From positions 1 through 14,132 of the forward strand of contig CBDAFS010000016.1 in the NCBI GenBank assembly GCA_965195285.1: a stretch of 14,132 bases of DNA, given 5' to 3'. Positions within the stretch are counted from its first letter, which is position 1; each line of letters begins with the position of its first letter. This stretch comes from an uncultured Aminicenantes bacterium. Its GTDB lineage: Bacteria > Acidobacteriota > Aminicenantia > UBA2199. Under the pieces are notes generated by a model that saw nothing but the letters and a program-made list of their open reading frames with translations, was not told the DNA's origin and made no database searches. Made by a program: the position numbers and the translations under genes. This document shows, one piece after another, positions 4,651-14,132 of this stretch.

Positions 4651-4677
4651 GAGGTTGAGGTTAAGGCTGAGGTTAAG
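4651..4677. repeat. Degenerate hexamer tandem patch (GAGGTT/AAGGCT)
   Basis: gaggttgaggttaaggctgaggttaag. The same family occurs inverted at 5120-5145 and direct at 8352-8377. Confidence 0.8.
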
Positions 4678-5005: not shown

Positions 5006-5081
5006 GCTCAGGAGACAGAAGATAGGAGACAGAAGACAGAATATAGAAGTTATGAAGATGGGAAGTTAAGAAAAAACTTTA

Positions 5082-5145
5082 CACTTTACGCCTTCACGCC
5101 TTACGTCTAACGTCTTTATCTTAACCTTAGCCTCAACCTTAACCT
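5082..5145 (-). repeat. Composite intergenic repeat, inverted copy of 8352-8407
   Basis: The reverse complement matches 8352-8407 with 2 substitutions and one extra 8-bp unit (GAAGGCGT). Confidence 0.9.
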
Positions 5146-7228: not shown

Positions 7229-7327
7229 GGTTCCGGGGGTCGGAGATCGGAGATTCTAACCCTCTCACTCTTTCACCTCAATCTTAATCTGAGATAAAGG
7301 TAGAGGTAAAGGTAAAGTCAAAAAATG

Positions 7328-8351: not shown

Positions 8352-8407
8352 AGGTTGAGGTTGAGGCTAAGGTTAAGATAAAGACGTGAGACGTAAGGCG
8401 TAAAGTG
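8352..8407 (+). repeat. Composite intergenic repeat, inverted copy of 5082-5145
   Basis: aggttgaggttgaggctaaggttaagataaagacgtgagacgtaaggcgtaaagtg. Confidence 0.9.
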
Positions 8408-9147: not shown

Positions 9148-9176
9148 ATTATAACATAGAGATTCTCTGAGGTAAA
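9148..9176 (-). promoter_or_regulatory. Extended -10 promoter for the RRM gene
   Basis: TGtTATAAT, with the hexamer at 9153-9148. A weak -35 TTTACC lies 17 bp upstream. Confidence 0.65.
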
Positions 9177-9268
9177 GAGTTAGGTAAAGGTAAAGTCAAA
9201 GGTAAATGAAAGACGTAATTGGTAATTCGTGAATAGTAATTGGTAATTAGTGATTGGTAATTCGGTTG

Positions 9269-9346
9269 TTACTTTCTCACTGTCTCACCTTTTCACTTTC
9301 TCACCTAAATCTGAGGTAAAGAAAAGACGAAAGTCGTAATTGGTGA
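9269..9346 (+). repeat. 78-bp direct repeat, copy 1
   Basis: Matches 10674-10751 at 75 of 78 positions. Confidence 0.92.
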
Positions 9347-10539: not shown

Positions 10540-10673
10540 TTCGACTCCTGTTAATACCTACGTTCTCTGAAGTAATAAAGTTGATGAATTATCCAATTTG
10601 AGGTAAAGATAAAGGTAAAGAAAAAGTTGAATTTAGGGTCTAGTGGCTTGTGAATGGTGACTCTCTCACCGTC

Positions 10674-10751
10674 TTACTTTATCACTGTCTCACCTTTTCA
10701 CTTTCTCACCTAAATCTGAGGTAAAGGAAAGACGAAAATCGTAATTGGTGA
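10674..10751 (+). repeat. 78-bp direct repeat, copy 2
   Basis: Matches 9269-9346 at 75 of 78 positions. Confidence 0.92.
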
Positions 10752-11889: not shown

Positions 11890-12068
11890 GCGTTCCTCCT
11901 CCAAGTATTTTACTGTTTCGTATACGAAATGGGAAGGGGCAGAGTTCAAAACGCTTAAATATATGGCACCCAACCATAGTTCAAAGCTCAGTTTCCGGAG
12001 GTCGGGGATCGGAGGTCGGAGATAGATATTAATGCCGGGAGATGCTGTTCATTCAGCATTTAATAATG

Positions 12069-12261: not shown

Positions 12262-12375
12262 TTTATCTAATTGAATGCCGGGTGACTGGGTGAGGGAACG
12301 TAAACGGAGGGGATGGGCACCATCGCATATGGGGCTGCGTCAAAACCTCCGATCCCCGAACTCCGACCTCCGAAA

Positions 12376-13644
12376 CTATTGTATGGTCAACACATGGGGG
12401 ACTTCCCAGTTCTCGGAGTGGAAGCGAGTGTCGTACTCCAGCTTTTTCAGATCGGCCCGGGAGGTCCAGATGGAGAGGGTGGTTCCGAATCTCGCCTGGA
12501 TCGAGCAGACTACCTCCCAGAATTCCTCCATGTTGGTTACTCCCAGGGCGCACAGATCCGTGGCCCGGCGGAAGCGGGTGCAATTTTGATACAGGTAGTC
12601 CGGCCCCTCCAGAAAGGCGGTGTTGGTCATCACCTGGTAGCATTCCGTGGTAGGAAACACGTGGAGTTTCTTATCCCGGTCAAACTCGATCACCACCGAT
12701 CGCCCGGAAGCATCGGCGATGAGGAAGTGCTGCAGCTCGTCCGGAAACCAGATCCTGACCTTCCGGATCAGGGCCAGGGCCTCTTCCACGGTAGCGCAGC
12801 AGTCCAGGATCACCCGGATCAGGCGGGGCGAGCAGATGGCCGCCACCTGGGGATAGGGCTCCTCGTCGTAACTGGTGTACTCCGGGGGTAAAATATTGCT
12901 GGCAATGGCCATGAACAGGCCCCTCTCGTTGATGCCGTCCATGATCTTGTTCTGCAGCTGGTAGCAGGTCATGCCCACCGAGCGGTAAACCCCGCTCAGG
13001 TTGGAGACCACCTGGAAGTGGGGCCGGTCGTCGTAGATGTCGAAGTTTCTTCCCGTCAGCATGCGCTGCTCTTCTTCTATATAATAGGAGATCACGCTGC
13101 AATTTTCCGTTGAGGTCGAGGAGGTGAAGCGGGTCAGTCTCAGGAAGTCGTCGTAGCGGAAAAGCTCCCACCAGAGCCGGCCGGCGAACCAGTCCTCGAT
13201 GTTGCGCAGGTCCAGATTCTCCAGATTCTGGGAATAAGCCCAGGCAATGCCCCGGGCCCGTTCCAGGAAGGGGGGAAAGAATTTCCCATACATCGCCTCA
13301 ATTTTTTCGTTGATCTCCCGGCTTTCCTCGGTGCGCAGGGTGGGATAAATGCCCTGCTTACGGGCCATCAGCCCCAGCCACTTGCCCACATCCCGGTAAC
13401 TGCCCTGAAAAGTGATCTTCTTGGGAAAAAGCCCCGGCGAGATCTCCTCGTAAATAGCCACGTTTTTCCCCAGCTCGGCATTGGTATTGGCCAGAAATAC
13501 TTTAAACAGGTCATCATAGGTTTCATACAGTTCCCGGATTTCCTGCTCCCGGGCCTCCCTCTCATCCTGATTCCGGCTCCAGGAGGTTTCGCAAAAGCAC
13601 AGGGTTAGGGTCAGTAAAATAATTAATATATATTTTTTTGTCAT
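12376..13644 (-). CDS. Secreted Ntn-fold cysteine hydrolase (C45 acyltransferase / linear amide C-N hydrolase-like)
   Basis: Signal peptide. Internal nucleophile-type ENCSVI followed by LTGRNFD, DGINERGL, HFLIADASG and MTN. Confidence 0.85.
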   Translation of the reverse strand: MTKKYILIILLTLTLCFCETSWSRNQDEREAREQEIRELYETYDDLFKVFLANTNAELGKNVAIYEEISPGLFPKKITFQGSYRDVGKWLGLMARKQGIYPTLRTEESREINEKIEAMYGKFFPPFLERARGIAWAYSQNLENLDLRNIEDWFAGRLWWELFRYDDFLRLTRFTSSTSTENCSVISYYIEEEQRMLTGRNFDIYDDRPHFQVVSNLSGVYRSVGMTCYQLQNKIMDGINERGLFMAIASNILPPEYTSYDEEPYPQVAAICSPRLIRVILDCCATVEEALALIRKVRIWFPDELQHFLIADASGRSVVIEFDRDKKLHVFPTTECYQVMTNTAFLEGPDYLYQNCTRFRRATDLCALGVTNMEEFWEVVCSIQARFGTTLSIWTSRADLKKLEYDTRFHSENWEVPHVLTIQ

Positions 13645-13682: not shown

Positions 13683-13944
13683 TTGTCAGGGAGAGCTCTC
13701 TTTAGTTTGTCATTAAGAACTATCAGAGCTTGTCATTAAGAACTTTACTGAGTTGGTCATTACATCTCTCTGAAACTTGTCAGGAAGGGATGAATTGAGC
13801 TTGTCATAATAGATCTTTTTGTCTTGTCATTACGACTCTTATGAATTTGTCATTGAAGCTCTATGTAAATTGTCATTGAAATTCAAAAAAGCTTGTCATT
13901 ACAGATCAAAAAAATTTGTCATAACAACTCTCTTTATATTGTCA
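13683..13944. repeat. Phased array of 12 TTGTCA(T/G) boxes with 23-24 bp period and variable spacers
   Basis: Boxes start at 13683, 13707, 13730, 13754 (TGGTCA), 13777, 13801, 13824, 13847, 13870, 13893, 13916 and 13939. Confidence 0.92.
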
Positions 13945-14004
13945 GAAAAAGAATTATTTACAAGCTCGGTTAGCTCTTTATGGCAATCTCCAGTAATCAC
14001 TTAA

Positions 14005-14100
14005 TGACAAGAACTGTTGAGCTCTTCCTGACGTTCACATAGTGAACTTATGACGCAACCTTCGGTTGCTAATGACGCTCACGAAGTGAGCAAATGACAA
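14005..14100. repeat. Inverted-orientation TGAC boxes separated by triloop hairpins
   Basis: TGAC at 14005, 14029, 14051, 14073 and 14095. The last three intervals each hold a perfect 6-bp stem with a 3-nt loop. Confidence 0.88.
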
Positions 14101-14132
14101 GTTCGATTAGATATTAAATAGGCTGGTCATTA

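Follow-up and report, generated by a model that had tools for sequence, protein, structure and literature searches.

An array of boxes and mini-hairpins at a contig end

The window analysed here, a stretch of 14,132 bp, is the entire contig C16 of a 3.28-Mb, 62-contig genome of an uncultured Aminicenantes bacterium (G000; G, C and L numbers denote the genomes, contigs and loci analysed), and it ends in an array of short boxes, GTCA on one strand and TGAC on the other, some of which are separated by small perfect hairpins (Table 1). The TGAC boxes of the inverted arm start at 14005, 14029, 14051, 14073 and 14095, as read by inspection of the sequence. The three consecutive units that a first-pass annotation had reported here, alike in geometry, each with a different perfect stem and with TGAC boxes at 22 bp, are present exactly as quoted; the unit before them has the imperfect stem ascribed to it, and the boxes are inverted relative to an upstream array of 12 forward boxes, again as reported. 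On balance, the array is read here as one large copy of a dispersed, mosaic family of intergenic repeats, found in part of one bacterial family, that resembles repetitive extragenic palindromic (REP) sequences and bacterial interspersed mosaic elements (BIMEs).

Read in reverse complement, the final 61 bases of the window are identical to the end of contig C31, and this 61-mer is unique to these two ends in the genome. The joined C16/C31 array comprises 33 boxes in ~0.8 kb (12 forward, 5 inverted, 4 forward and 12 inverted) and is the largest in the genome; the forward array that might resume after 14124 does resume, but in C31. Other sequencing runs were compared as contigs, and in two other public runs, as expected from the C31 continuation, contigs link 14070-14132 to a sequence nearly identical to 13879-13942. 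The far side of the joined array is bordered by a type I restriction R-subunit gene (HsdR), with a promoter-like site directly after the last box. The second half, in C31, is a 94%-identical duplicate of 13872-14076, in which the paralogue of hairpin unit 1 reads GTTCGC-ACA-GCGAAC versus GTTCAC-ATA-GTGAAC in the window, a compensatory change of both sides of one pair. The stem type of hairpin unit 2 was found again twice in C31, and in C45, C42 and genome G002.

Some contigs of other runs depart from the window within the forward arm: in run X1, 13721 is joined to 13972, and in run X3, 13738 is joined to 14020 through 11 other letters. These joints leave out 250 or 281 bp of the forward arm and may represent strain variants with ~11 fewer units or assembly collapse. 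The only RNA run gave one contig at 12214-12388 and none over the array, and is uninformative on transcription.

Table 1. Coordinates of the array and of further features of the source genome (positions given without a contig refer to the window)
Feature	Position	Strand	Description
Forward arm, 12 flat (F) units	13683..13944	+	T[TG]GTCA(TTA) box and 14-15 nt spacer, period 23-24 bp, without hairpin
Junction of forward and inverted arms, ~60 bp	13945..14004	+	94%-identical duplicate in C31 continuation
Junction unit	14005..14028	+	TGAC and imperfect stem AAGAAC...GCTCTT; kept as '...GAGCTCTTAATGAC' in other copies
Hairpin (H) unit 1	14029..14050	+	TGAC GTTCAC ATA GTGAAC TTA
H unit 2	14051..14072	+	TGAC GCAACC TTC GGTTGC TAA
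H unit 3	14073..14094	+	TGAC GCTCAC GAA GTGAGC AAA
Final TGAC box of inverted arm and 25-nt linker	14095..14123	+	
First box of second forward arm, TGGTCATTA	14124..14132	+	Goes on in C31 (reverse complement) with 3 further forward, then 12 inverted boxes
Flanking gene (context only)	12376..13644	-	Choloylglycine-hydrolase/AAT-like, lipoprotein-like N-terminus; transcription points away from array
Spacers with 6-8 bp tandem repeats	4651-4677, 5009-5049, 5084-5145, 7240-7317, 8352-8403, 9170-9306, 10601-10711, 11996-12023, 12347-12374		
Nitroreductase gene (L214)	C15:131487-132627		Framed by two mutually inverted elements, between PFOR and LOG
Example type of hairpin unit, G.A reading			ACGAGCGAAGCGAGT
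Y1 HUH genes	C30:32107-33075, C47:23160-24080, C61:47174-48022, C31:40855-41742, C46:20682-21575, C14:33230-34120, ~11 more		
GGGGTCAGGTCTAAAGAATAAAGA repeat	C53:37423/37626, C53:42600/42803, C55:71741, C55:110723, C55:112263, C15:141-190, C15:112890-112925		

Units were gathered from the source genome and from 69 loci of its relatives (287, or 259 once overlaps were removed). All are modules of 22-24 bp with a box (C/T/G)GTCAT, or ATGAC on the other strand, and they fall into two kinds arranged in two opposed arms. Flat units (22-24 nt) start with TGACAA, are conserved in sequence and are G-poor on the TGAC strand; pair covariation was looked for in them and none was seen. Hairpin units (22 nt) carry a 15-nt hairpin, with a 6-bp stem and a 3-nt loop, in most cases GNA, directly 3′ of TGAC, and keep the pairing while the stem sequence is free. 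Two other identities were considered and rejected. A mini open reading frame reading of TAATGAC, as a stop/start overlap, does not suit the NNA before TGAC, which by eye is variable (TTA, TAA, AAA, CTA, TCA), and the consensus of an IHF site fits one flat unit type only.

Comparison with shuffled sequence confirmed that the pattern is more frequent than chance provides, as the first-pass annotation required of it. The genome has 20 chains of at least three GTCAT/ATGAC boxes at 22-25 bp spacing, and three block-shuffled genomes contained none. Immediately after TGAC, it has 48 perfect 6-3/4-6 hairpins versus 10-19 in five shuffles, and those followed by NNN-TGAC numbered 21 versus 0. When 14005-14100 was folded as single-stranded DNA, all three hairpins formed, with z scores relative to shuffles of -2.7 (+ strand) and -3.9 (- strand), and folding of the forward-box array was not above shuffles (z -0.26 and +0.23 as DNA).

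Covariation of the hairpin units and the strand that probably folds

Pairing was assessed in 77 distinct 22-nt units, selected on the sole criterion that they do not start with TGACAA and with pairing disregarded. The Watson-Crick fraction was 0.68 in the 6-3-6 register, versus 0.15-0.25 with the partner slid by 1-3, and column shuffles gave 0.39, with none of 1000 shuffles reaching 0.68. Stems were perfect in 22 of the 77 units, with 14 different stem sequences among them. These family-wide statistics, and the compensatory change in the C31 paralogue, uphold the view that differing stems within the locus amount to covariation.

A second signal came from the mismatches. Tandem G.A pairs in the pyrimidine-GA-purine (Y-GA-R) context are stable, and tandem G.A/A.G occupied stem positions 3-4 in 30/77 units from several genera, always in this context on the TGAC strand; the complementary strand would show C.T and T.C at the same positions. 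The pairs that flank them covary (ACGAAC/GTGAGT, ATGAGC/GCGAAT, GTGAGT/ACGAAC), as fits a hairpin and not a direct repeat, and all four flanking pairs were Watson-Crick in 17 of the 30. The loops of these units were GAA (8), GTA (6), GCA (4), AAA (5) or others (7), and GCGAAGC was present in many. The first-pass remark that some loops are GNA closed by C-G holds for the family, in which such loops and GCGAAGC cores are common on one strand only, the TGAC strand. In DNA, d(GCGAAGC) and d(GNA) loops with a C-G closing pair are described as forming mini-hairpins of extraordinary stability that contain a sheared G.A pair (PMC13037366; PMC3201870), and the 3-nt GNA loop is given as a stability motif of DNA rather than RNA (PMC13037366). 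Folding of the TGAC strand in single-stranded form is the probable reason why the hairpin units are kept, in line with the earlier suggestion of a structure read in that form. Given such folding, the balance tips towards DNA over RNA as the folding strand, because 30/77 units have tandem G.A in the Y-GA-R context, and GNA loops or GCGAAGC cores lie on the TGAC strand only.

An array read as duplex is unlikely. In this case a protein would bind the 9-bp box TTGTCATTA every two helical turns, in opposed arms, bridging or wrapping the DNA, and the hairpin spacers would be secondary; the candidates are a nucleoid-associated protein, a regulator, or the DnaA-C-like helix-turn-helix (HTH) of proteins like the REP-associated tyrosine transposases (RAYTs) and TIRYTs, ~17 Y1 proteins with such an HTH being encoded in this genome. 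The box is the sole invariant part, the 22-24 bp period is strict in both unit kinds, the flat units keep additional conserved positions without pairing, the arms are often similar in length (++++----, +++++-----), and elements often lie just upstream of promoter-like sites, all of which would suit duplex binding. However, complementary spacers of free sequence and an asymmetric tandem G.A in otherwise symmetric stems are left unexplained by it, no protein co-occurring with the arrays was found, and a 23-bp period would turn successive sites by ~70 degrees and so away from one helix face.

An RNA element is less likely again. CsrB and RsmZ are multi-site sponges for an RNA-binding protein, and a transcribed TGAC strand, with tandem hairpins and single-stranded NNAUGAC, could act in the same way or stabilise mRNA ends as REPs do. 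A constant linker motif, a regular period and variable stems would be expected of such an RNA, the hairpins of 14005-14100 also fold as RNA (z -2.2 and -2.7 relative to shuffles), and tandem G.A pairs are stable in RNA too. Read-through would be possible at 7 of 12 loci in the source genome (3 convergent, 4 tandem), but the genes diverge at the other 5, half of each element is oppositely oriented, and, judged by skew, the TGAC strand tends not to be the one that carries the neighbouring genes. Promoter- and terminator-like sites within arrays show no excess (1 promoter-like site versus 2.3 expected). A scan of four loci with Rfam 15 at E<=1 gave only two chance-level matches, both outside the arrays (E 0.045 and 0.94), and none near a gathering score. 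The 3-nt GNA loops, as a DNA motif (PMC13037366), also speak against an RNA element.

Dispersal, turnover and enclosed genes

The same architecture was found at ~12 intergenic loci of the source genome: C15 (three), C16/C31, C30 (two), C36, C42 (three), C45 and C62. Read on the TGAC-hairpin strand, a typical copy begins with a conserved end AAAAAWCMC-TGGTCATTA, continues with 4-6 flat units (GTCATTA, 14-15 nt and TT), a junction and 3-5 inverted hairpin units, and closes with a conserved end AAATGACCAGT followed by heptamer repeats; the outer boxes are CTGGTCAT...ATGACCAG. The order of unit types is conserved among copies, and also among genomes that share only 43-85% protein identity. The neighbouring genes are unrelated, and include a response regulator, LOG, nitroreductase, PFOR, HsdR, a SpoIIE phosphatase, an ABC transporter, ParB and peptidases.

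Among 72 genomes of the same bacterial family, the box pattern was matched in 21, with 3 control matches in total; the 21 include genomes with a single match unlike this element (e.g. G001, G022, G047), several single matches being other repeats. Element-like matches were concentrated in ~6 genera, and one genome, G011, had 13 pattern matches. One genus includes both genomes rich in arrays (G084, G082 and G024) and genomes free of them (G083 and G010). BLAST of a plasmid collection returned nothing similar. In a scan of general contigs for a four-box pattern, hairpin units of this kind were present in none of 80 loci among the matches listed, and a three-box scan of viral contigs gave mostly unrelated tandem repeats among the matches listed. 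One viral contig of 205 kb (L382) has at 250-950 a different element, two opposed arrays around a 100-bp centre, composed of seven 23-bp units ending TATAATGAC and many 12-bp units TCGTCATTACAG.

Of 401 genomes sampled from the phylum, 19 had matches, and control matches numbered 3. Among the 19 are seven genomes (G150, G379, G431, G201, G328, G293 and G461; 10 loci inspected) in which simpler tandem units of 24-25 bp with a (C/T)GTCATT box abut a longer hairpin, for example CGTC-ATTCCGG-CTTGT-CCGGAAT, others having a mini-hairpin core of the G.A type. The tandem units repeat one half of a CGTC-type REP hairpin and are stacked beside the complete hairpin (L298 and L299 in G150 and G379; L301, L303 and L304 in G431, G201 and G328; L292-L296 in G293; L286 in G461), an arrangement of which no description was found in the available excerpts of the REP literature.

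Elements differ in presence between orthologous sites. PFOR lies next to LOG in G051 and G084, and in the source genome the two genes are parted by a flat-unit element, the nitroreductase gene and a full element; in the genome closest to it, the contig stops 81 bp past PFOR. One G084 element sits between a stop codon and the promoter-like site of the next gene, and the four other genomes of the genus that hold the gene all lack it in the orthologous spacer, where one of them has other short tandem modules. A further G084 locus (C5, L281:16409-17291), within a polysaccharide biosynthesis locus with four arrays in 15 kb, carries a gene for a 23S-rRNA-IVS protein (PF05635) exactly in the junction of a 9-unit and a 14-unit arm, and the 14-unit arm shows a 66-bp higher-order period. 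Arrays probably change length by slippage or unequal exchange of phased modules. At C15:127711-129619 a DUF4041/T5orf172 gene and a tRNA-Lys adjoin the element at C15:129730-129974, and this region looks like the edge of an island.

Tandem repeats of 6-8 bp (AGGTAA, CAGAAGA, GTAATTG, TCTCACCT, CGGAGGT and others) occupy nearly all intergenic spacers of the window, and the same module types flank box arrays in the source genome and its relatives, so that the intergenic DNA gives the impression of having been put together from a stock of short modules. A low-score census of the genome with TRF was too noisy to quantify short tandem repeats.

Such surroundings could be taken to indicate a neutral minisatellite, in which tandem duplications would be selfish or neutral and palindromes would owe their perfection to intrastrand template switching as the DNA replicates, not to selection. 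The expansions in unit number, the higher-order period in G084, the 250- or 281-bp skips of the forward arm in other runs and the repeat-rich adjoining DNA are all compatible with this. Template switching, however, would erase the tandem G.A mismatches, which are fixed in position in 30/77 units with covarying flanking pairs, and the order of unit types would not be expected to persist across such divergent genomes; this explanation is accordingly considered improbable. No more probable is a role in gene capture, in which phased arrays would be platforms for a protein that reads TGAC and the mini-hairpin in extruded or replicative single-stranded DNA and the 9-bp box in duplex, opposed arms would synapse, and the junction would be a site of gene capture or exchange. 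This would account for the precise placement of the nitroreductase gene and the 23S-rRNA-IVS-protein gene between arms and for the restriction-modification gene beside the largest array, and if true would make the arrays a REP-derived counterpart of an integron or composite transposon.

A unique origin, priming site or attachment site centred on the hairpins, as first proposed, can practically be dismissed: the mini-hairpin geometry does resemble single-stranded priming signals and hairpin promoters (PMC13037366), the array is the largest in the genome, between divergent genes and beside a restriction gene, and elements flank or enclose inserted genes at two loci, but there are ~12 loci among unrelated neighbours instead of a single initiator-linked one as for an iteron array, dnaA lies on another contig (C7), GC skew follows gene orientation with no origin-type switch (the sign change at the C16/C31 join matches gene orientation, and a larger switch in C31 is 30 kb away), no plasmid matched, no integrase family, as would be expected beside an integron attC or phage att site, occurs among the proteins of the window or of the neighbours, and the window locus has no tRNA, with one tRNA-Lys near one locus only of 8 scanned.

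Candidate enzymes and relation to known repeats

The ~17 divergent genes of the source genome (25-49% identity) that encode a Y1 HUH domain and a DnaA-C-like HTH have as their best match the NCBIfam 'REP-associated tyrosine transposase' (80.0 and 61.8 bits versus a cut-off of 80). All five that were inspected are framed by inverted repeats of 20-25 bp starting GGGGTCAR, which have GTCA in common with the array box, and inverted pairs of one of these repeats, like miniature inverted-repeat transposable elements (MITEs), are scattered in the genome. The TIRtron/TIRYT class has the motif GGGGWSAS (PMC3733652), and these genes with their repeats fit that class. The GGGGTCAGGTCTAAAGAATAAAGA repeat occurs as MITE-like inverted pairs ~200 bp apart, some ends of which are preceded by short AAGGGGTCA arrays at 12-22 bp spacing.

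The reading that best accommodates the arrays is a lineage-specific, head-to-tail, phased variant of tagged REP/BIME-like repeats. Hairpin modules would be retained through folding of the single-stranded TGAC strand, slippage or unequal exchange would lengthen and shorten the arrays, and an HUH-type enzyme (Y1, RAYT-type) that reads the tag and hairpin might spread or rebuild the elements, the last step being possible but doubtful on the present analysis.

Several observations weigh against this reading. The TGAC strand was C-rich in 7 of 10 loci, clearly positive in GC skew at 1 and near zero at 2, a small and non-independent sample, and a TGAC sequence on the C-rich strand is not what a hairpin of the lagging-strand template would predict. 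The strand evidence comes from the G.A class alone, since G.T and C.A mismatches, 3 each, carried no strand signal, and by nearest-neighbour energies a G.A-rich array did not fold above shuffles (z -0.6, -1.0). Copies share descent, so that the shuffle statistics overstate independence. An alignment of 11 near-identical copies (10 from G011 and 1 from G023) showed no sharp ends, fading instead into other modules, and no target duplication was seen in it or between filled and element-lacking sites. A MITE would have sharp ends with a target-site duplication as well as terminal inverted repeats; the outer boxes here are CTGGTCAT...ATGACCAG. Stems of 6 bp with 3-nt loops and a head-to-tail order at a fixed 22 bp are also departures from CGTC-tagged REPs, whose stems are given as 8-9 bp and loops as 4-5 nt and whose head-to-tail dimers are called negligible (PMC3733652). 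Finally, no cognate enzyme was found. The RAYT/TIRYT-like gene that adjoins an array in C30 was a promising partner, but it is the only one among 36 loci, none of the 35 further loci in the source genome and its relatives lying beside an array, and close homologues of the C30 protein do not track the arrays across the 72 genomes: G011, G024 and G082 have arrays and no homologue at E<=1e-30, many array-free genomes have one, and G011 with its 13 pattern matches has only one weak Y1 match. This gene is therefore not supported as a partner, and the link to such enzymes is a resemblance of mechanism and not a finding, because of the 0/35 further loci and the lack of a phyletic match.

As a phased variant of REP-like repeats, the arrays provide a natural experiment, in which dozens of hairpins share geometry and position and differ in sequence. 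One strand has the invariant tandem G.A as its mark, units keep strictly to a 22-nt phase, and elements are clearly gained and lost between close genomes. Whether structure or sequence is read, and on which strand, thereby become testable questions. The arrays also break short-read assemblies, contig C16 ending in one, and could be mistaken by repeat finders for CRISPR-like or iteron arrays.

Few non-coding features of bacterial genomes are as abundant as REP-type repeats, and for the half of them that is CGTC-tagged we know of neither a mobilising enzyme nor a function. The first-pass term 'undescribed' holds in that the arrays match no described family, and it does not hold in that tagged REP/BIME repeats are the closest described class (PMC3733652). 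In CGTC-tagged REPs the tag is often TGTC, stems start with AT, inverted dimers predominate, clusters are rare, no transposase is associated, and hosts are named among Proteobacteria, Chlorobi, Bacteroidetes, Spirochaetes and Thermotogae (Di Nocera, De Gregorio and Rocco 2013; PMC3733652). The present repeats share with them an intergenic, multi-copy distribution, the lack of a dedicated enzyme and an occasional clustering into mosaics (PMC3733652), and their box, (C/T)GTC-AT, may correspond to the tag with AT; in other lineages of the phylum, hairpins of the form CGTC-ATTCCGG-loop-CCGGAAT are joined to tandem GTCATT-box units. All true loci are intergenic and built on a short stem-loop unit. 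On its own strand the box with CGTC or TGTC and AT lies 3 nt from the stem, which abuts TGAC on the other strand. Unlike CGTC-tagged REPs, each unit has a different stem instead of a stem and loop sequence shared by the family (14 stems among the 22 perfect units), the stem abuts the box on the TGAC side, arms are head-to-tail at 22-24 bp rather than mostly inverted dimers (PMC3733652), and a second, non-palindromic unit class fills one arm.

Enterobacterial BIMEs are similar as intergenic mosaics of a short repeat and other modules, variable in number and set between unrelated genes (PMC2817692; PMC3333891). Their REPs alternate in orientation with fixed linkers, whereas here orientation is uniform within an arm and only the arms are opposed, modules repeat every 22-24 bp and no more than 5-9 bp are conserved. 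The Neisseria intergenic mosaic elements (NIMEs), in which dRS3 repeats flank units of 50-150 bp, are also mosaic, variable in number and scattered, and differ from the 22-24 bp period without 50-150 bp units seen here. Clusters of dRS3 in Neisseria are mentioned beside the tagged REPs (PMC3733652). In REP-RAYT and TIRtron/TIRYT systems a Y1 HUH enzyme reads a tetranucleotide beside a single-stranded DNA hairpin (PMC3733652; PMC3333891; PMC8266576; PMC6006769), a gene flanked by its own repeats, whereas the arrays neither flank such genes, save at 1 of 36 loci, nor co-occur with them across genomes. Single-stranded priming sites and hairpin promoters (the phage G4 origin, ssiA, N4 early promoters) share GCGAAGC or C-GNA-G cores, sheared G.A pairs, 5-7 bp stems and 3-nt loops (PMC13037366), and are single sites in phage or plasmid origins, whereas the present hairpins are tandem, multi-copy and chromosomal. 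The arrays are therefore filed as a REP/BIME variant outside the described families, because of their phasing at 22 nt, their short stems of free sequence, their 3-nt loops and the arm of flat units.

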